A stretch of DNA of 64,000 bases, from positions 26,034 through 90,033 of the forward strand of contig CAIOCT010000039.1 of the NCBI GenBank assembly GCA_903856725.1, given 5' to 3'. The translations under genes were made by a program, and so were the position numbers. Below are positions 135-48,794 of this stretch, in pieces. The notes under the pieces were generated by a model. That model had not been told where the DNA came from and did no database searches. It saw only the letters and a list, made by a program, of their open reading frames with translations. The DNA comes from an uncultured Verrucomicrobiota bacterium (lineage in GTDB: Bacteria; Verrucomicrobiota; Verrucomicrobiia; Opitutales; Opitutaceae). Numbering within the stretch: position 1 is the stretch's first letter; each line of letters begins with the position of its first letter.

Positions 135-566
135 TCATTGAGGCAGTGCGGCGATCCAGCCATCCACCATGGCGCGGGCTTCATCTCCCTCCGCTAGCAA
201 ATCGCCTTTGGGGCCGTACACTTTAAAATGGGGAATTGAGCGCATGCCGTATTGTTGAGCCACGGGTGATTGCCAATCGATGCGGTGAATTTCGGGCCGG
301 TTAATATCAACTTTGATCACGGCGACATCAGCGCGCTGTTGGTGGAGATGGAGGAGTGGCTCTGTGTAGCCGCGGCAGGGCGGGCAATATTCGCTCGTAA
401 AATCAAACACCGTAAATTTTTGCGGCACGAGAAAATCGGTGAGGCTTACTTCCACTCCTTGCGCAATGCGCAATGGCTTTTCAGTTTTGAGGTGGGTACC
501 GGTCGCCCAGGCGGTCGTGGCAAGTGCGAGGGTCAGGGCGCAGGCGAGGGTCGTAATAAATTTCAT
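135..566 (-). CDS. Exported thioredoxin-family thiol-disulfide oxidoreductase
   Basis: Signal peptide (..TAWA); DFTSEYCPPC active site; SIPHFKVY cis-Pro loop. Confidence 0.85.
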   Translation of the reverse strand: MKFITTLACALTLALATTAWATGTHLKTEKPLRIAQGVEVSLTDFLVPQKFTVFDFTSEYCPPCRGYTEPLLHLHQQRADVAVIKVDINRPEIHRIDWQSPVAQQYGMRSIPHFKVYGPKGDLLAEGDEARAMVDGWIAALPQ

Positions 567-645
567 AGACCCAAGTTGGGGAATTTCTGGTCAAGGCCAA
601 GCAAACAACCCGATTGCGCTGGCGGGTGCAGCTCAGCGCAGAGTG

Positions 646-22592: not shown

Positions 22593-25500
22593 TTAGCTCG
22601 CAGGTTCGTAATCGAGGTAGGGGGCCAGCCACTTTTCGGTCGTGCTGGCTTGCAGCTTTTTGCGCCGAGCGTAATCGTGTACTTGATCGCGCGGTAACTT
22701 GCCGACCGCAAAATATTTAGCGTCGGGATGATTGAAATACAATCCGCTGATGCTGCTGGCGGGGAGCATAGCGCAAGACTCTGTGAGCGTGATGCCGGTG
22801 GCCGCGGGTACCGCTAGAAGTTCAAAGAGCGTAGTTTTTTCAGTATGATCAGGGCACGCTGGGTAACCAGGCGCAGGACGAATTCCGCGATATTTTTCAC
22901 GGATCATATCTGGCATCGTTAAATTTTCCGTCAAACCGTAGCCGGAGTAATCGCGCGCTTGCTTGTGTAGCAATTCAGCGAGGGCTTCAGCCAGACGGTC
23001 GCCGAGCGCTTGGGCCATGATTGCTTGGTAGTCGTCGTGTTGAGCGCGAAATTCAGCGGCAAATGCTTCCACCCCGTGACCAACGGTGACCGCGAAGCCG
23101 CCTAGATAATCTCGCCGGCCCGATTCTTTTGGCGCGATATAATCGGCCAGGCAGTGGTTGTACTGATCGGCCGGCTTTTCGTTTTGCTGCCGAAGAAAGT
23201 GAAAAGTAGTGAGGATCTTGGTTCGCGTTTCGTCAGTATAAATTTCCACGCTATCTCCGACTGCATGGGCGGGCCAGAAGCCGAGGACTGCTTGCGCGGT
23301 GTAACGTTGCTCTGCGACGATTTGCGCGAGCATTTTTTGAGCATCAGCGTAGAGTTTCGTCGCTTCTTCGCCCACGACGTGATCAGTGAGAATGTCGGGG
23401 AAGCGACCGTGGAGCTCCCACGCCGAGAAAAAAGGCGCCCAATCAATAAACTTAACGATCTGGCTGAGCTGTAATTTATGGGTCGACGCTGACTGGAGCG
23501 ACGCTGGCGCCGAGGTATAAACCCGGGGGCCAATAAATTCTGGTTGGGCGATGGCGATGGTCGACCAGTCTGTGGGTTGCCGGCGCGCGCGGGCTTCCGT
23601 GAGCGTGAGCATTTTTCGCGCCCCTTGGCGGTCCGCAAAATCGAGTCGCTGCCGTTCTTGCTTGGCTCGCAAATCTGCGCGGTAAGCGGGCTGGTGTTCT
23701 GGATTGAGCAATTGGGCGACGACGCCGATGACCCGCGAGGCGTCGAGTACGTGACAGACAGGTTCTGGGTAGTGCGGGGCAATTTTGATTGCCGTGTGGG
23801 CAGCCGACGTGGTGGCGCCTCCGATCAGTAACGGGAGTTTAAAATTAAGCCGCGACATCTCTTTCGCCACGTGGACCATTTCATCGAGGGAAGGGGTGAT
23901 GAGACCGGAAAGCCCGATGACATCCGCACTTTTCTCTTGGGCGGCCGCGAGAATTTTTTCGCAGGACACCATCACACCAAGATCGATGACCTCATAATTA
24001 TTACAGGCGAGGACCACGCCAACGATGTTCTTGCCGATGTCATGCACATCTCCCTTGACCGTTGCCATGACAATCCGGCCCTGCGCGCGGGCGACGCCGC
24101 CGGCGGCCACGAGTTGCTTTTTCTCTTCCTCCATGAACGGTTGGAGGTAGGCGACGGCTTTTTTCATCACGCGAGCGCTTTTGACTACCTGCGGCAGAAA
24201 CATTTTACCGGAGCCGAAAAGGTCGCCCACCACGCGCATGCCCTCCATGAGCGGGCCTTCAATAATGAGCAGAGGTTTGCCGTATTTTTGGCGGGCCTCT
24301 TCGGTGTCGACGTCAATGAAAGCGTCGATGCCCTTCACGAGGGCATGACTAAGTCGCGCTTCAATCGGCGCTTGGCGCCAGGCCTCAGTGTTTTCGACTT
24401 TAGCTTCTTGGTTTTTATTGGGGCCGGCGGCCGCAGCTTTTAATTCTTCCCCGAGCGTGACCAGTCTTTCAGTGGCATCGGGCCGGCGATTCAGCAGGAC
24501 ATCCTCGACGTGCGTGAGGAGAATCGGATCGATCTCTTCGTAAACCTCTAGCATCGAAGGATTGACGATAGCCATGTCCAGACCGGCTCTAATGGCGTGG
24601 TAGAGAAAAGCTGAGTGCATGGCCTCGCGCACGGTATTGTTGCCGCGGAAAGCAAAGGAAACATTCGATAAGCCGCCGCTGACTTTGGCGTGAGGGAGGT
24701 GGGCTTTGATCCAGCGGGTCGCTTCGATAAAATCGACGGCGTAATTATTGTGCTCCTCGATGCCAGTGCCAACCGTCAGAATGTTGGGATCAAAAATAAT
24801 ATCTTCCGGCGGGAAATGGAGCGCGTCGACGAGCAGGCGGTAGGCGCGCGTGCAGATGCGGATTTTTTCCGCATAGGAAGAAGCTTGGCCATTTTCATCG
24901 AAGGCCATGATGACGACCGCCGCGCCGTAGCGCTGAATGGTCCGTGCCTGGTCGAGAAATTTCTCTTCTCCCTCTTTCAGCGAAATGGAGTTCACGATCC
25001 CTTTACCTTGGAGGCATTTCAAGCCGGCCTCGATCACCTCCCACTTGGAGGAGTCGATCATGAAGGGGACTTTGGCGACTTCCGGTTCACTTGCGAGCAA
25101 GTGCAAGTAGCGGTTCATGGCGGCGACGCCATCGATGAGGCCCTCGTCCATGCAAACATCAATGACATTGGCGCCGTTGTCGACTTGTTGGCGGGCGACG
25201 GCGACGGCTTCCTCAAAATTGCCTGCTTTGATAAGTTTCGCGAATTTAGGTGAGCCGGCGACATTCGTGCGCTCACCAATCATGATGAAATTATTTGGCG
25301 CTGGGGTAAATGGCAACGAACCTGACAAGGCGAACTGGGGAGCGAGAATATTGACGCGCCGCGCGGGTTGCGGCGCGAGGGCTTGCGCGATCGCCGCAAT
25401 ATGATCGGGCGTGTTGCCGCAGCAACCGCCCGCGATGTTGAGGAGTCCGCTGGTAGCAAATTCACCGAGGTGGCGCGCCATGTCGGCGGGGCCGAGATCA

Positions 25501-26441
25501 AAGCCGGTTGCTGCGAGCGGATTCGGCATACCTGCATTGGGATAGCAGGAGATGAAGGTATCTGACTTCGTTCCCAATTCTTCGAGAAAGGGGCGCATCA
25601 GATCGGGGCCAAGCGAGCAGTTGAGTCCGACGGCGAGTGGCTGGGCGTGGCGAACCGCGTTCCAGAAAGCTGCCACCGTTTGGGCGGAGATCATCGTTTC
25701 CCCGCCGCGGCCTACTGCCGCTGAGATCATCAGCGGTCGGTGAAGCTGATCTTCCGCGAAGACCTCAGCGATCGCTACGAGGGCAGCCTTAGCATTGAGT
25801 GCATCAAAGATCGTTTCAACAAGGAGGAGATCGACGCCTCCAGCGATCAGGGCGCGGACTTGGCGGCGATAGTCAGCTTTGACTTGATCAAAGGTAACCA
25901 CGCGAAAACCGGCGTCATCGGCATCTGGCGAAACCGAAAGCGAAACCGTTAAAGGGCCAACCGCCCCCGCCACATAGCGGCGTCGACCTGTGGCATTGGC
26001 GACCCGGTCTGCCCAAGTGCGGGCCAGCCGCGCAGAGGTGAAATTAATATCGCGCGCCAGTTCAGTTAGGAAACTATTTTCAAGCACCTCGGCATAGAAG
26101 GCGGGATCTTTGCGGCCACCTTTTTCCCGCGGATCCTCAATAAAAAATTCACTCTGGCCGATGCTCGTTGCGGAAAAAGTGTTCGTCTCAATGATATCAG
26201 CGCCCGCCTCTAAAAAGCGGCGGTGAATATCACCGATTTCCGTGGGCCGAGTGAGCGAGTAGATATCACCGTTGTTTTGCAGGTCCTTCAGCGCATCCTT
26301 GAAACGTTCCCCGCGGGCCGCTTGTTCATTCAGTTGATAACTGCGAATGGTTGTGCCCATGGCCCCATCCATAATCGCGATGCGTTCAGCGATGAGCTGA
26401 CGGAGAGCAGTTTCGGCAGCAGTGGGCGGGAGCGGCTTCAT
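22593..26441 (-). CDS. metH: Cobalamin-dependent methionine synthase
   Basis: [39 protein letters not shown]12-binding motif, [12 protein letters not shown]. Confidence 0.98.
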
Positions 26442-26456
26442 GAATGGACGTATCTT

Positions 26457-26478
26457 TACATCAAGATGCGATGATATG
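26457..26478 (-). promoter_or_regulatory. Candidate transcription-factor operator upstream of metH
   Basis: Minus strand CATATCATC-gcatctt-GATGTA, 15 nt before the metH ATG; the same box precedes metF. Confidence 0.6.
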
Positions 26479-26610
26479 AAAAGGCAAGCTAGTGATTACG
26501 TGACCGTGCGGCGTGATGTTGGGCTCGGCCCAATCGGAAAAAGCAGAGTAAAACACAAAAACCGCGCAGCCTTTAAGATTGCGCTGATGGGGCGCTGGGC
26601 TGGTGCTGGT

Positions 26611-26842
26611 GGCTGTCAGTCGTTCTTTATTTTAAAAAATCTGAAGCAACAGGGAAGGCCGTGAAATTCGGCCACAGTTGCGCTGCGGTAACGCATCACA
26701 GACCCCCATTCTGCCTAAAGGCAGGAGCAAAGCCAATCGGGCAACCGGTGAAGGCGAGGGGCGAGGATGCGCGCTTGCTCACCCGGGATAACGTTACTTG
26801 GTGAGCGAGTGCGTAAGAAATGCGGAGTCCGAACATCTGCCT
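26611..26842 (+). ncRNA. Cobalamin (AdoCbl-type) riboswitch
   Basis: AACAGGGAA-GGCCGTGAAATTCGGCC-ACAGTTGCGCTGCGGTAA core; B12-box variant GCCAATCG..CGGTGAAGGC; 3' GAGTCCGAACATCTGCC pairing with 5' GGCTGTCAGTCGTTC; lies upstream of a TonB-dependent receptor. Confidence 0.9.
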
Positions 26843-27014
26843 TCAGAACTCACCGCGCTGGCGCGCTCGGCGCACTGGCGAGAAACCTTCAACGCTTATT
26901 TGAAGGGTGGGAGTGGATCAAAGTGATCAAGGTCGGTGCTTTCATTATCATAAAAGTGGAAATGAATGCGCTGATCTGACTCGCGATCTGCTCTTGCCTT
27001 AGCAGCAGCCGATC

Positions 27015-28874
27015 ATGAATCAAATCCACTCGGGCGCTTTCGCGCGCCCCCTATGTTTCGTCAGCTTATTAATGGCTAGCGCCGCCATTGCGCAAATAAC
27101 GGCCCCAGAAATTTTGCCGGTCTACGTTCTCACGGCCACTCGCACGCCCACGGCATTGACGACCACGGGCAGTTACGTGGACTCATTCAGTGCGGCTGAT
27201 CTCGCGCGCATGCAGCTGAGCAGCTTATCCTCGGCTCTCAGTGGCATCGCGGGCGCGCCAATTTTTGCCTCCGGGGCCGCCGGCGGGGTCACATCGCTTT
27301 TTCTCCGTGGGGCCAATTCCAACCAGACCTTATTTCTGGTGGATGGCATCCGTTTCAACGACCCGAATACTGATTATGGCGTCGCGCTGGGCGGAATGAG
27401 TGTTGCCGCCGGGGATAGCTTAGAGGTCGTGCACGGCCCGCAAAGCACCCTCTACGGTGGTGAAGCGGTAGGGGGTGTTTTGGCTTTGCACGCAGCGCGG
27501 GGGGCCGGCCTCGGCACGCAGAGCCGCTCGTTTGAGGCTGGAGCTTTTGGAACGTTGCAGGGGGCTATTCACGCTCAAGGAGGCGATCGGGGCTCGGCTT
27601 ACAATTTTTCGGCGATGGGGGGCAGCACGCAAAATAGCCGGCCTAACAATGATTTCACCAGTGCAACGTACGCGCTCCGCCTCGACCGACAAATCAACCC
27701 GCGGTTGGCGTTGGGCGCGACGGTGCGTGGTTTTTTAAGTCAGTATGGCTCGCCTGGTGACCGCTACACGAATGATCCCGATAATAAAGATAGTGAAAGT
27801 AACCAACTCGGGACCATTTTTTTGGAATATAATCCGACGCCGATGTGGACAACCAAAGCCGTGCTGGGTGGGCAGGACCGGCGCTTTGTGGCCCGTGATC
27901 CTGGGCCTGATGGCCTCGTTGAGACCGTCGTGAAAAATCAGCGCATCGTGTTTGATGGACAAAGCACGCTCCAGGTCGGCGAACAACATCGGGTGACGGC
28001 GGGCTTAACCACCGAGGGGCACCATACTCGCAACACGGGCTTTGGGAATATTGATCAGCGGCAGCAACTCATCGCGATTTTTGTGCAGGACGAATGGACG
28101 CCCGTCCCTCGAGTTTTTTTAACGGCTGGTTTGCGGAGTGATGATCATGATACTTTTGGTCGAGCCACTACCGGCCGGGTGACGGCGGCGTGGTTGTCGC
28201 AAAATACTCGCTGGAAAATTCGGGCGACGTATGGAACTGCTTTTCGGGCACCGAGCTTTCTCGATCTTTATGGGCAGAGTTCCTTCTACGTGGGGAATTC
28301 TGCTTTGCGCCCCGAGCAAGCGCAGGGGTGGGACGCGGGCTTTGATTATTTTTTCCCGCATAATCGGGGTAGTTTAAGTGCGACTTGGTTTGATACCCGC
28401 TTTAATAATCTCATCACCTTTGATTTTGCAGTTTTCCCTGGCACCGTGAGAAATGTGGGCCGCGCGCTTACTCGGGGCGGGGAATTTTCGGGTAAATGGG
28501 GCTTCGAACAAGTGGTTCAAATGCGCCTGGCCTATACTTATCTTGAAGCGGACGATCTTACTCACGGCACCCGCTTGCTGCGGCGACCTCGGCACAGTGG
28601 CGCGCTCGATTTATGGCATAATTTCAACGGCGGTCTGAGTGCCGGCGCCGGTTTGACTTGGCAGGCACAACGTGAAGATGTCGATGCGGCCACTTATGCG
28701 ACGATTCGCGCAGAAGATTATGCGATCGCGCGAATTTATACCGCTTGGCAGGTCAGTGCGCGGGTGACGCTTAAAATGCGGATGGAGAATATTTTTAATA
28801 AAAAATATGAAGAGGTGAATGGTTACCCTCAACTGGGACTGGGGTTCTTTGGTGGCTTGGAGATTAAATTTTAA
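27015..28874 (+). CDS. btuB: TonB-dependent outer-membrane receptor, BtuB-like (probable corrinoid uptake)
   Basis: VLTATR TonB-box region, LRGANSNQTLFLVDG plug, GPQSTLYGGEAVGGV, ENIFNKKYEEV, terminal F; preceded by a B12 riboswitch. Confidence 0.85.
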   Translation: MNQIHSGAFARPLCFVSLLMASAAIAQITAPEILPVYVLTATRTPTALTTTGSYVDSFSAADLARMQLSSLSSALSGIAGAPIFASGAAGGVTSLFLRGANSNQTLFLVDGIRFNDPNTDYGVALGGMSVAAGDSLEVVHGPQSTLYGGEAVGGVLALHAARGAGLGTQSRSFEAGAFGTLQGAIHAQGGDRGSAYNFSAMGGSTQNSRPNNDFTSATYALRLDRQINPRLALGATVRGFLSQYGSPGDRYTNDPDNKDSESNQLGTIFLEYNPTPMWTTKAVLGGQDRRFVARDPGPDGLVETVVKNQRIVFDGQSTLQVGEQHRVTAGLTTEGHHTRNTGFGNIDQRQQLIAIFVQDEWTPVPRVFLTAGLRSDDHDTFGRATTGRVTAAWLSQNTRWKIRATYGTAFRAPSFLDLYGQSSFYVGNSALRPEQAQGWDAGFDYFFPHNRGSLSATWFDTRFNNLITFDFAVFPGTVRNVGRALTRGGEFSGKWGFEQVVQMRLAYTYLEADDLTHGTRLLRRPRHSGALDLWHNFNGGLSAGAGLTWQAQREDVDAATYATIRAEDYAIARIYTAWQVSARVTLKMRMENIFNKKYEEVNGYPQLGLGFFGGLEIKF

Positions 28875-46273: not shown

Positions 46274-47713
46274 ATGTCTGCCTTGTCCTACGAGACACTC
46301 CGCGCCGCTTTTGACGGCCAGTCGCTGTTTGAGAATAAGACCTGGCAGTTGTCCCCAGAAGCCTGGTCCTTGACGCCAGAGCAAGTTACCCAGTTGGAGC
46401 AGATCGGGGCGGCGTGTTTAGAATTCCACCAAGCGCTGGAGATTCTTTATCTCCGCTCCGTGGCCGGAAAAAATTTGCTGCGGAACAAGTCATTATTAGC
46501 GCCGTGGGTGGCTGATTACTTGGATCGCGGTAAGCCGGCTACTTTAGTGGAGCATGCGCGTGACCCCAAAAATCGGGGAGCTTTCCCCACGGTGCTGCGC
46601 CCTGACCTTTTATTGACCGATGATGGCTTTGTGCTCACAGAACTGGATTCAGTCCCCGGGGGAATTGGTCTGACGGCATTTTTAAATCGGCTGTATAGCT
46701 CAGGGGGCTCTGCGGCGACGCCGGTGATGGGTGGTGAGACGATCCTCGGTGCGGGTGATCGCATGGTGGAGAATTTTTACCAAGCCCTAGCGACGTTACG
46801 TCCTGAGTCGAGAAACCCGCTCATCGTCATTCTCGTCAGTGAGGAAGCGGCGACTTACCGTCCGGAGATGCGGTGGTTGGCCGAGCAATTGCAGCGACTA
46901 GGTCGGCGGGTTTATTGTCTGCGCCCAGAGGATGTGTTCCCCCTCGGGGGCGAATTATTTTTCGCGGTCGAGGGCACGCCGGAGAAAATTGATATTATTT
47001 ATCGTTTTTTTGAGCTCTTTGACTGGGCGAATGTGCGAATTGCGGCAGATATTTTAGAGGCCTGGCAGAGTGGGGCCGTGACGATTTCTCCCCCGATGCG
47101 GCCTTTTCAGGAGGAGAAATTAGCTTTGGCTTTATTTCATCATCATCTCTTGCCCGAATTTTGGGCGGAAAATATTAGCCGATCGCATTTGGAGTTACTG
47201 CGGAAAATCATCCCGGCATCTTGGGTAATGGATCCCGCGGTGCTTCCGCCTGGGGCGGTTTTAGATGGCCCGCGGGTCGGTGGCCGTTTGCTCAATGACT
47301 GGCGCGAGCTCAGTGGGGCCTCGCAGAAAGAGCGGGATTTAATTATCAAGATTTCTGGTTTTCACGAAACAGCGTGGGGCGCGCGCAGTGTAATTTTGGG
47401 CAGTGATTGTTCGCGCGAAGAGTGGCAAGCGGGCGTGGCACAGGCGTTGGCGTTAGCTCCGCACAATTTGCATCTGCTGCAAGAGTACAAAAAGCCGCGG
47501 CGACTCGAGCACTTGCTCTACGAGGAAAATGCACCGAATCAGGCGGCCGTAGCCAAGGCCGGCCGGCTCCGATTGTGCCCTTACTATTTTGTGGTAGCAG
47601 GGCAGGCTCGTTTATCGGGAGCCTTGGCCACGTTTTGCCCGCCGGACAAAAAAATTATTCACGGAATGGTTGATGCAGCCTTATTGCCATCGCGAGGGTT
47701 GCCCTTGGGCTAG
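46274..47713 (+). CDS. Uncharacterised glutathionylspermidine-synthase-like (circularly permuted) ATP-grasp ligase
   Basis: RPDLLLTDDGFVLTELDSVPGGIG, YRFFELFD, LIIKISG, LQEY, RLCPYY motifs. Confidence 0.7.
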   Translation: MSALSYETLRAAFDGQSLFENKTWQLSPEAWSLTPEQVTQLEQIGAACLEFHQALEILYLRSVAGKNLLRNKSLLAPWVADYLDRGKPATLVEHARDPKNRGAFPTVLRPDLLLTDDGFVLTELDSVPGGIGLTAFLNRLYSSGGSAATPVMGGETILGAGDRMVENFYQALATLRPESRNPLIVILVSEEAATYRPEMRWLAEQLQRLGRRVYCLRPEDVFPLGGELFFAVEGTPEKIDIIYRFFELFDWANVRIAADILEAWQSGAVTISPPMRPFQEEKLALALFHHHLLPEFWAENISRSHLELLRKIIPASWVMDPAVLPPGAVLDGPRVGGRLLNDWRELSGASQKERDLIIKISGFHETAWGARSVILGSDCSREEWQAGVAQALALAPHNLHLLQEYKKPRRLEHLLYEENAPNQAAVAKAGRLRLCPYYFVVAGQARLSGALATFCPPDKKIIHGMVDAALLPSRGLPLG

Positions 47714-47949: not shown

Positions 47950-48201
47950 TCAGGCCACTGCGACCTGACCGGCAAGCGCGGGCGCAGTGCTCTGTTTGGC
48001 CAGATGATTGAAGAACTGATCACGACGCTCGCGGGCGGTCGTGAGGCACTTAGTGCCCAAGGAGCGGCGAATGCGCTCTTTTGTAAATGGGGTCGGGTAG
48101 ACCGTGTAATGCAAAAACCACGTTCCGTTGTTATTCCAGAGGTGGTGGTTGGGGTTGGCTTCGCTGATGCGAAGGGCGGCGAGGGTGATGACGTTAGACA
48201 T
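47950..48201 (-). CDS. 83-aa conserved hypothetical protein resembling an integrase arm-type DNA-binding domain
   Basis: HLWNNNGTWFLHYTV..RIRRSLGTKCLTTARERRD; three predicted strands plus a helix; downstream of a SAM riboswitch. Confidence 0.8.
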   Translation of the reverse strand: MSNVITLAALRISEANPNHHLWNNNGTWFLHYTVYPTPFTKERIRRSLGTKCLTTARERRDQFFNHLAKQSTAPALAGQVAVA

Positions 48202-48254
48202 GATGCGTGAGCGGTTGAGTTTTAACTAATCGTTCGCGCACCAGGGTGTTCCCT

Positions 48255-48300
48255 AAAAAACGAAAGCCGCCTGAGAGCATCAGGCGGCTTTCCGTTTTTT
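48255..48300 (-). terminator. Intrinsic terminator forming the riboswitch expression platform
   Basis: Minus strand AAAGCCGCCTGA-tgctc-TCAGGCGGCTTT then CGTTTTTT, between the aptamer and the 83-aa ORF. Confidence 0.85.
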
Positions 48301-48338
48301 GAGGAGGAGTTTTTTTGTTAGAAGGTGTTACCCCTCTC

Positions 48339-48433
48339 ACATCCGGGTGACTTGCGTCACTCGAAACCACCGTGATCACTCCTAGACCCGGTTGGCAGAA
48401 CCGACTGTTGCCAGTCGATCCTTTCCTGATGCG
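48339..48433 (-). ncRNA. SAM-I-clan riboswitch (SAM-I or SAM-I/IV variant)
   Basis: P1 GCATC/GATGT; ATCAGGAA J1/2; P2 AGGATCGACT/AGTCGGTTCT; P3 GCCAACC..GGTGGT (covariant of GGCAACC..GGTGCC); P4 GTGAC-GCAA-GTCAC. Confidence 0.8.
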
Positions 48434-48794
48434 AGGCGGAGCGTGCGAATCAGCGAACGGAAGACCAGATAAATTTTATTCGAGACTTATCTTCTGATAA
48501 TTATTAATTAATAAATATATGCTATATATATACTTACGTTATATGATGTGTCGAAAAAAATTATAATTTAATGAATTCAGTGGGTAAGTGCAGGGCCTAA
48601 TAATTGCTGCGTGAGAATTATTTTTAAGTCTGCAGTCAGATCGGTCACTTCACCTGTGAGGGTGTTATGGTGACAGTTAACCGGCCTTTCACTCCGCGTT
48701 TTCCGTATCCTCCGCATTTCATTAAGATTTTTAAAATTAGCAGAGCGCTGGCGCGCTGGCATTTGCTTTTTAGCCAACTTTGCTAAGTTGGCTG

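Follow-up and report, generated by a model that had tools for sequence, protein, structure and literature searches.

The closest described relatives of the RNA discussed here are the riboswitches for S-adenosylmethionine (SAM), above all the SAM-I/IV class, one member of which, env87, reportedly has a crystal structure, determined by Trausch et al. in 2014. The class was described by Weinberg et al. (2010); it is set apart from SAM-I and SAM-IV by an unsplit P2 helix, the absence of pseudoknot 1 (PK-1) and the presence of both the P4 helix and pseudoknot 2 (PK-2) (PMC6890682; PMC2864571). The locus compared with these systems lies in a 64,000-nucleotide (nt) stretch of DNA from an uncultured Verrucomicrobiota bacterium of the Opitutaceae (assembly GCA_903856725.1, contig CAIOCT010000039.1, positions 26,034 to 90,033), here called the window. 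On its minus strand lie an aptamer, a terminator, a spacer and an open reading frame (ORF) for a mini-protein of 83 amino acids. The RNA belongs to a known class that is mostly missed by Rfam thresholds, and its expression platform departs from the common design. The novelty lies in the cargo, a large family of basic, uncharacterised mini-proteins that, judged from sequence, is tied to SAM status. The explanation as a whole, a SAM-I/IV transcriptional OFF switch for one small gene whose product is a predicted nucleic-acid-binding factor, is probable; confidence is high for the riboswitch and its OFF-switch design.

The structured element, read directly from the sequence, covers 136 nt (48437-48302, minus strand; all other parts of the locus lie on the same strand). 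The aptamer (48302..48437) runs through P1, P2, P3 and P4 into a tail with P5 and PK-2; it matches Rfam family RF01725 and scores 158.5 bits with the covariance model R1 built from its relatives. In P1, the 5′ strand GCAUC (48428..48432) pairs with GAUGU (48339..48343), as placed by the Rfam alignment and by covariation. P2 (48398..48421), seen in the sequence and in covariation, is a straight 10-base-pair (bp) helix with a GCAA loop. Covariation likewise defines P3 (48366..48396; GCCAACCGGGUC ... GAUCACGGUGGU) with its loop L3, UAGGAGU; the P4 hairpin GUGAC-GCAA-GUCAC within the junction (48347..48360); and the P5 hairpin immediately 3′ of P1 (48320..48337). PK-2, recognised by compensating variants, joins AGGAGU in L3 (48378..48383) to ACUCCU in the tail (48305..48310). 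P2 is continuous over its 10 bp, with no kink-turn or internal loop, and inspection found no PK-1, the GCAA loop of P2 having no complement in the joining region J3/4 (UUCGA). This architecture (unsplit P2, P4, P5 and PK-2, no PK-1) therefore makes the class SAM-I/IV, not SAM-I. An earlier note, written by a model from the letters of the window, had called the aptamer SAM-I-type: membership of the SAM clan stands, on the RF01725 match and covariation, and the SAM-I label gives way to SAM-I/IV. The straight P2 without a kink-turn that it described is a diagnostic feature of SAM-I/IV; P5, PK-2 and a second anti-P1 copy downstream of the terminator go beyond that first reading. An extended P1 was also considered and dropped, since by eye it is not conserved across loci.

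The nucleotides equivalent to the ligand pocket are kept: AUC in P1, G-A in the joining region J1/2, CAAC and UG in P3, and the A in the P1 3′ strand, where the SAM-contact positions were mapped onto the window RNA through what we take to be the SAM-I numbering. The SAM-I nucleotides within 5 Å of SAM are listed in PMC6890682. These conserved positions, together with relatives of the RNA that precede metH and metK, point to SAM as the probable ligand.

In Rfam, where SAM-I/IV stays the best model after clan competition, the RF01725 ('SAM-I-IV-variant') match extends over the full model (positions 1-99) with 36.4 bits and E=2.7e-4 in a search of 501 nt; the gathering score of the family is 41.1 bits, so the covariance-model hit that the earlier note had looked to is full-length and sub-threshold. 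The shortfall arises mainly because the Rfam alignment counts the P4 hairpin as an insertion. A scan of the whole window at gathering threshold returns a cobalamin riboswitch only, and the SAM match appears when an E-value threshold is used. Among 13 related loci scanned, L074 is the sole one to pass (41.5 bits); the leaders of two distant family members, L087 and L091, exceed the threshold with 46.5 and 46.2 bits. The fold z-score of the aptamer region is -7.4.

Conservation among relatives carries the aptamer assignment. For 80 fetched loci, model R1 was built from 68 leaders and 863 kilobases were searched: it gives one hit per locus, directly 5′ of the ORF, in 78/78 loci with upstream sequence, and it also recovers, with 60-71 bits, the seven divergent loci that the seed alignment did not contain. 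In the model-based alignment 98.1% of cells are paired. Changes on both sides occur in 17 of the 36 pairs, against 4-7 in slid controls, and none of 500 shuffles reached the observed covariation values. Such changes affect 6 of 10 pairs in P2, 4 of 5 in P4, 5 of 6 in P5 and two pairs in P3, which is 99.2% paired. The five pairs of P1 are 100% paired; four are invariant, and the closing G-U becomes G-C in four sequences. The P3 core CAAC and UGG are invariant, and core nucleotides are invariant in 68-75 sequences. PK-2 forms 6-8 bp in every sequence and exists in four compensating variants: AGGAGU/ACUCCU in the main group, CGGGAGCG/CGCUCCCG in the seven divergent loci, GGGAU/GUCCC in L074 and CGGGAA/UUCCCG in L086. 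The match to the aptamer is far beyond chance, and a reading of it as chance resemblance is rejected.

Downstream of the aptamer stands an intrinsic terminator (48255..48292), a 13-bp GC-rich hairpin (48292-48262) followed by a U6 tract (T6 at 48260-48255 in the DNA); a 53-nt spacer separates this tract from the ORF. The earlier note had proposed that the 5′ strand of P1 doubles as the antiterminator, and conservation and folding support this proposal. All of the coordinates it gave are exact, including those of GCATCAGG (48432-48425), which by sequence read-out is the exact 8-nt complement of CCTGATGC (48284-48277). In RNA terms, the antiterminator 5′ strand GCAUCAGG (48425..48432) consists of the P1 5′ strand and J1/2 and is present in 75/75 leaders; the 3′ strand CCUGAUGC (48277..48284) lies in the 5′ arm and loop of the terminator and contains an invariant CUGAUG. 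The terminator and the 8-nt complementarity are kept together in all 75 full-length leaders, with a mean hairpin energy of -27.7 kcal/mol. The terminator stems covary (GCCGCC, ACCGAC, ACCGAU, GCCGUC and CCGGCC, each with a matching 3′ arm), and CUGAUG does not change even at loci that place part of it in the loop.

Folding of nascent transcripts up to the end of CCUGAUGC gives the same picture: the minimum-energy fold contains the 8-bp GCAUCAGG:CCUGAUGC helix and no P1 in 75/75 cases, and its mean advantage over the fold with P1 forced is about 9.6 kcal/mol. Once the terminator 3′ arm is added, the terminator prevails. Independent support comes from L103, a metagenomic leader of the methionine synthase gene metH, since it has the same design, with an identical GCAUCAGGAA strand and CUGAUGC at the equivalent place in the terminator. 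Another candidate antiterminator, UGAGAG/CUCUCA, was dropped as not conserved across loci by eye.

The platform contains more than this one exchange, for in it the anti-P1 sequence occurs three times and the P1 5′ strand twice. The second anti-P1 copy, CCUGGUGCG (48237..48245), lies about 20 nt past the terminator; its motif, CUGRNGCGSGA, recurs in 74/75 leaders. The start-codon region CGCAUCAUG (48199..48207) is a near-copy of the P1 5′ strand CGCAUCAGG and is largely invariant. Unconstrained folds of full leaders pair the P1 5′ strand with the second copy in 73/75 and leave the AUG region open; when P1 is forced as a mimic of the SAM-bound state, the second copy and the AUG region pair in 71/75. 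In these models the start-codon region may be a sequestered site, and the second copy and start-codon mimic probably add a translational checkpoint.

The ORF (47950..48201, 83 codons, DUF6538-like) is delimited by homologues, codon-position variation, an AlphaFold model and co-transcription. It has 1,268 detectable homologues and is encoded in about 573 species-level genomes; a profile search of 1.8 billion representative proteins returned at least 945 clusters at 50% identity, the best 150 of which are all free-standing proteins of 65-159 amino acids. In 81 sequences, 43 of 45 third codon positions vary, as do 19 of 45 first and 8 of 45 second positions, and synonymous codon differences outnumber non-synonymous ones by 1,419 to 381. 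Leader and ORF are contiguous in metatranscriptome contigs, in one of which (X4) 10/10 substitutions in the ORF fall on third codon positions, and part of the leader/ORF region is present in many lake metatranscriptomes. The ORF is a real gene under purifying selection. As the earlier note had read it, the mini-protein is the only cargo and the next gene is convergent: this monocistronic arrangement was found at all three loci checked, the one in the window and two others, and in L017 the convergent neighbour is a large Sel1/LysM ORF.

Members of the family share the signature N-HH-LW-NNG-TW-x-HYT-x-PT-x-T-x-R-x-R-x-SL-x-T...AR-x-RD. They are strongly basic (mean isoelectric point (pI) 10.3, net charge +5.7), and carry invariant Arg residues. 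AlphaFold predicts a beta-beta-beta-alpha core (E8-11, E14-24, E27-34, H40-58) with a predicted local distance difference test (pLDDT) score of 92.5 and a predicted template modelling (pTM) score of 0.72. At the C-terminus, A-V-A (or AA) is nearly invariant in close homologues (47950-47964), although it follows a variable stretch of approximately 15 residues with predicted disorder. Three members searched against NCBIfam matched no model; no publication on the family was found, and a literature search for DUF6538 gave nothing relevant. The earlier note had also likened the protein to the arm-binding domain of tyrosine integrases without a catalytic domain. The absence of a catalytic domain holds, the best 150 of the at least 945 clusters all being too short for one. 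The likeness itself appears in weak profile matches and in the predicted three-strand-plus-helix topology: the window protein scores 20.4 bits against Pfam DUF6538 (PF20172; cut-off 27), 28 of 28 diverse members match this family sub-threshold at E<=0.1 (best 3.5e-6), and 3 of the 28 match Arm-DNA-bind_3 (PF13356) sub-threshold (best 0.0026).

The pairing of aptamer and mini-gene is ancient, extending to a protein identity of about 44% and over several platform types. Nine deep-branching representatives share 41-57% identity with the window protein. In five of them the mini-gene directly follows a SAM-I/IV aptamer (L083, L086, L087/88, L089/90 and L091), and two of these five aptamers exceed the Rfam threshold and have a canonical J1/2 (AAGAG, ACGAG). 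Platforms vary: L086 has the full terminator design, and L083 and L143 have no terminator. In the distant lineages the mini-gene heads tight and varied operons, with partners such as an ADP-ribosylglycohydrolase (L083, L087), an FGase (L092) and a phosphatase; all-against-all BLAST found no shared downstream partner. The ADP-ribosylglycohydrolase stands 3′ of the mini-gene at two unrelated loci (L083 1147-1275, L087 1924-2889) and in L083 overlaps the mini-gene stop codon; it was identified by eye from its N-terminal GAIAGDMIG...FTDDT, and BLAST did not report it. L083 also has a second SAM-I/IV aptamer (61.6 bits; 465-596, minus strand), which repeats the GCAUCAGGAA strand and is followed by a CCUGGUGCGCGAA element. 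It precedes an unrelated 81-amino-acid ORF (144-389, minus strand) without a Pfam hit, divergent from the mini-gene, whose own aptamer lacks P4. Upstream of a further family member, P0182, lies a 418-nt intergenic region (L084 820-1238, L085 2556-2974) without a match in Rfam or to model R1, perhaps a structured leader of another kind.

Other cargoes were sought in the reverse direction, by searching metagenome contigs with a core aptamer pattern, which returned 80 loci and eight verified aptamers. The mini-protein follows three of these, metH one (L103), metK one (L142) and other small ORFs three, a cargo fraction of 3/8 that comes from a small sample and from a loose pattern partly derived from these leaders. 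At the level of sequence, this shows the same RNA class before canonical SAM genes, which it would govern as well, and the mini-protein as a frequent cargo. The three small ORFs (L163 141-269; L157 1192-1311; L136 411-534) encode 70-85 amino acids without a Pfam family, and small uncharacterised proteins may be a recurrent cargo of SAM-I/IV riboswitches. Literature searches on SAM riboswitches in Verrucomicrobia or before regulators found nothing relevant, and no entry for Opitutus occurs in the searchable part of the first SAM-I/IV alignment, of 2010.

In the proposed mechanism, bound SAM would lock P1 (GCAUC/GAUGU), J1/2 and the L3-tail pseudoknot; with P1 locked, the 13-bp hairpin and U-tract would form and transcription would end before the ORF. 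When SAM is scarce, GCAUCAGG would pair with CCUGAUGC as this emerges in the 5′ arm and loop of the terminator, and the resulting antiterminator would block the terminator and let RNA polymerase enter the ORF. On a read-through mRNA, closure of P1 would free the second copy to pair with the AUG region, which would repress translation of a message that binds SAM later; with P1 open, its 5′ strand would hold the second copy and the AUG would be accessible. The product would be a nucleic-acid-binding factor made at low SAM. From these data we infer SAM as the ligand, which way the switch works, a translational layer and what the protein does. That the mini-protein is a nucleic-acid-binding regulator is a tentative proposal, which its predicted properties make possible and leave short of an even chance. 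Its more ambitious form, in which SAM starvation induces a nucleic-acid-binding master regulator of methionine and SAM genes without their own riboswitch, is somewhat doubtful. One such gene would be the window metH (22593-26441, minus strand; a 1,282-amino-acid B12-dependent methionine synthase with about 150 nt of upstream sequence), before which no SAM aptamer was found (best R1 score 5 bits). This is compatible with control delegated to the protein and is not a demonstration of it.

A number of observations weigh against the explanation. For the aptamer, the 36.4 bits of the window copy lie under the curated Rfam threshold of 41.1 bits, as do the scores of 12 of 13 sampled related loci, and J1/2 is AGGAA where the consensus is AAGAG. 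The strands of the antiterminator are invariant and so offer no covariation, which leaves conservation and nearest-neighbour energetics, from an energy model that takes no account of folding kinetics, the ligand or the pseudoknot. Unusual, too, are the span of the pairing, about 150 nt, and its use of the P1 5′ strand; antiterminators normally employ the 3′ side of the aptamer. In the proposed translational layer, the helix between second copy and start region is mismatched centrally in about one-sixth of leaders (by eye), and unconstrained folds that include coding sequence already pair the AUG region in 48/75. The metatranscriptome contigs show co-transcription of leader and ORF and nothing beyond it. 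The earlier note had asked whether the RNA precedes the homologues; it does so at the 78 close loci and not at four of the nine deep-branching ones (L081, L082, L084/85 and L092/93), where the aptamer is missing. For the protein, Foldseek against PDB gave nothing significant (best E 1.1 with the core of pLDDT 92.5, 0.46 with an earlier model), and the earlier model against BFVD reached at best E 0.044, with a few phage integrases among the weak matches. The probability from hhalign against the lambda Int N-domain is 0.1, the only matches from a profile search of PDB sequences were spurious ones to designed WD-repeat proteins, and BLASTP aligns residues 17-40 with residues 14-31 of lambda Int at a non-significant E-value. 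Because Foldseek, hhalign and BLASTP are negative and the Pfam matches are sub-threshold, the integrase-arm resemblance of the earlier note is a weak lead, not an established relationship.

Where the protein is concerned, that neither fold nor profile searches matched it significantly to a DNA- or RNA-binding domain is also what would be seen if the riboswitch worked as described and the mini-protein acted by contact with other proteins or as an accessory to them. It might, for example, modulate the ribosome or an enzyme that makes or uses up SAM, or help the variable enzymes encoded downstream in the distant operons. The operons with enzymes that the distant mini-genes head suit such a role, and the invariant HH motif and extreme conservation would fit a conserved protein partner. 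The strongly basic character of the family (pI about 10.3), its invariant Arg and the consistent sub-threshold matches to arm-type DNA-binding families speak for nucleic acid instead, and the downstream genes are mutually unrelated, which argues against a dedicated enzyme partner; a role of this kind is rather unlikely. The decay of a tyrosine integrase, leaving an ORF beside a riboswitch-like sequence, would account for the motif-level likeness to arm domains and for the non-significant BLASTP alignment with lambda Int. It is so improbable that it is rejected: the family comprises at least 945 clusters at 50% identity, the best 150 all of 65-159 amino acids; third-position variation dominates, as expected of purifying selection; and the gene keeps a syntenic position between sucCD and prfB with no mobile context, no tRNA having been found near it and tblastn having found no relatives in phage (50,697 records) or plasmid (72,556 records) collections.

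For the RNA, an invariant AGGAA in place of AAGAG, a score of 36.4 against 41.1 bits and a non-canonical cargo could all be signs of a specificity variant for a ligand other than SAM, for example S-adenosylhomocysteine or another SAM-derived metabolite. The P4 insertion explains the score deficit, however, and the positions equivalent to SAM contacts are kept; the AGGAA variant also precedes metH in L103, and distant members with a canonical J1/2 (AAGAG, ACGAG) pass the Rfam threshold, so that another ligand is quite improbable. Similarly slight is the probability that the terminated leader, of about 180-210 nt, is the main product, a trans-acting small RNA to which control of the ORF is secondary. 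The terminator is very strong and conserved, invariant motifs that can be single-stranded (GCAUCAGG, CUCCUCC) could pair with other mRNAs, and part of the region is present in many lake metatranscriptomes. Yet the ORF is always there, under purifying selection and co-transcribed with the leader; L083 and L143 keep the pairing of aptamer and ORF without a terminator; and pairings within the leader fully account for the invariant motifs. A trans-acting RNA would in any case be compatible with the OFF switch rather than exclusive of it.

The surroundings of the locus complete the description. A promoter-like site, TTATCA and TAAAAT with a 16-nt spacer (48473..48500, minus strand), lies at the edge of an AT-rich tract and implies a transcription start at about 48466 (TCTGG); this weak sigma-70-like site matches the consensus at 9/12 positions, a number not above that expected from shuffles. 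By eye, an A-rich tract followed by TCTGG precedes the aptamer in many loci, and the metatranscriptome contigs that reach the leader end at 48419-48477. The AT-rich tract (about 130 nt; window 48470-48600, minus strand) stands 5′ of the leader in a genome that is otherwise GC-rich, and its sequence differs even from the closest relatives, L001-L003. A TTATGACA motif recurs about 25-40 nt 5′ of the conserved TCTGG in L052, L056, L064, L066, L069-L077, L083 and L084 and is probably a -35-like promoter element, marking with TCTGG the start region of those leaders. A sigma-54-type promoter was dropped, again for want of conservation across loci by eye. The locus is chromosomal and syntenic. Its convergent neighbour (46274-47713, plus strand) encodes 479 amino acids without a match in Pfam or NCBIfam and is kept beside prfB in 57/80 loci. 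The terminator (48262-48292) also scores on the plus strand, where an upstream A-tract mirrors the U-tract; it is bidirectional and could also halt antisense read-through from this neighbour.

Elsewhere in the window, the cobalamin riboswitch (26593-26858, plus strand; 51.9 bits) is divergent from metH and followed by a TonB-dependent receptor and a DUF885 gene (downstream gene at 27015-28874, plus strand). The 5′ region of metH (26458-26470, minus strand) contains CGCATCTTGATGT, made up of the P1-strand words GCATC and GATGT, about 17 nt before the ATG. It may be there by chance, since about 14% of 150-nt stretches should contain a given 5-mer, or it could be a candidate operator.

Genes found behind riboswitches and outside the expected regulon have repeatedly led to new biology. 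The expression of this mini-protein appears hard-wired to SAM status in the Opitutaceae and in more distant lineages, and knowledge of its function would reveal how these abundant freshwater and soil Verrucomicrobiota respond to a shortage of methyl donors. The idea that a riboswitch may hand a regulon over to a protein would be put to the test as well. If the mini-protein is indeed a master regulator, the family would be a major overlooked output of SAM-I/IV riboswitches among environmental bacteria, and SAM would have its first cascade from a riboswitch to a protein regulator. For annotation, the Rfam SAM-I/IV threshold misses most of these leaders. For mechanism, the multi-copy platform may combine transcriptional and translational control.

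Compared with the described systems, the window RNA is closest to SAM-I/IV (RF01725), with which it shares the SAM-I-like core (P1, J1/2 and P3 with CAACC/GGUG), the unsplit P2, P4, the 3′ hairpin and the PK-2 from L3 to the tail; relatives of the window RNA precede metH and metK. It departs from that class in the sub-threshold scores of the window and most Opitutaceae copies and in the AGGAA of J1/2. Its platform uses the P1 5′ strand, not the 3′ side of the aptamer, as antiterminator, and is extended by another anti-P1 copy and by a start-codon region that resembles the P1 5′ strand; and its main cargo is a mini-protein, not a methionine/SAM enzyme or transporter. With SAM-I (RF00162, the S-box) it has in common the P1-P2-P3-P4 four-way junction, the ligand-pocket nucleotides and a terminator-based OFF design. 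SAM-I, in contrast, has a kink-turn in P2 and a PK-1 between L2 and J3/4 and lacks P5 and PK-2, whereas the window RNA has a straight, GNRA-capped P2 as well as a covarying P5 and PK-2. SAM-IV (RF00634) resembles it in a PK-2 joined to the 3′ hairpin (P5) and in a SAM-I-like pocket (PMC6890682), and differs in lacking P4, in splitting P2 into P2a and P2b and in having PK-1; in the window RNA P2 is unsplit, P4 is present and PK-1 is absent.

On the protein side, integrase arm domains and the mini-protein share a three-stranded beta-sheet followed by a helix (predicted here), basic character, weak Pfam matches and the motif R-x-S-L-G-T...A-R past strand 3. The mini-protein, unlike them, is free-standing, without a core-binding or catalytic domain, bears the invariant N-HH-LW-NNG-TW signature, and is encoded by a chromosomal and syntenic gene, not on a mobile element. 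The SAM riboswitches SreA and SreB of Listeria are said to act in trans. Together with other relays from riboswitch to regulator, they are the conceptual precedent for a riboswitch whose output is a regulator rather than a metabolic enzyme; there the relay is the terminated RNA, whereas here the output is a conserved protein.

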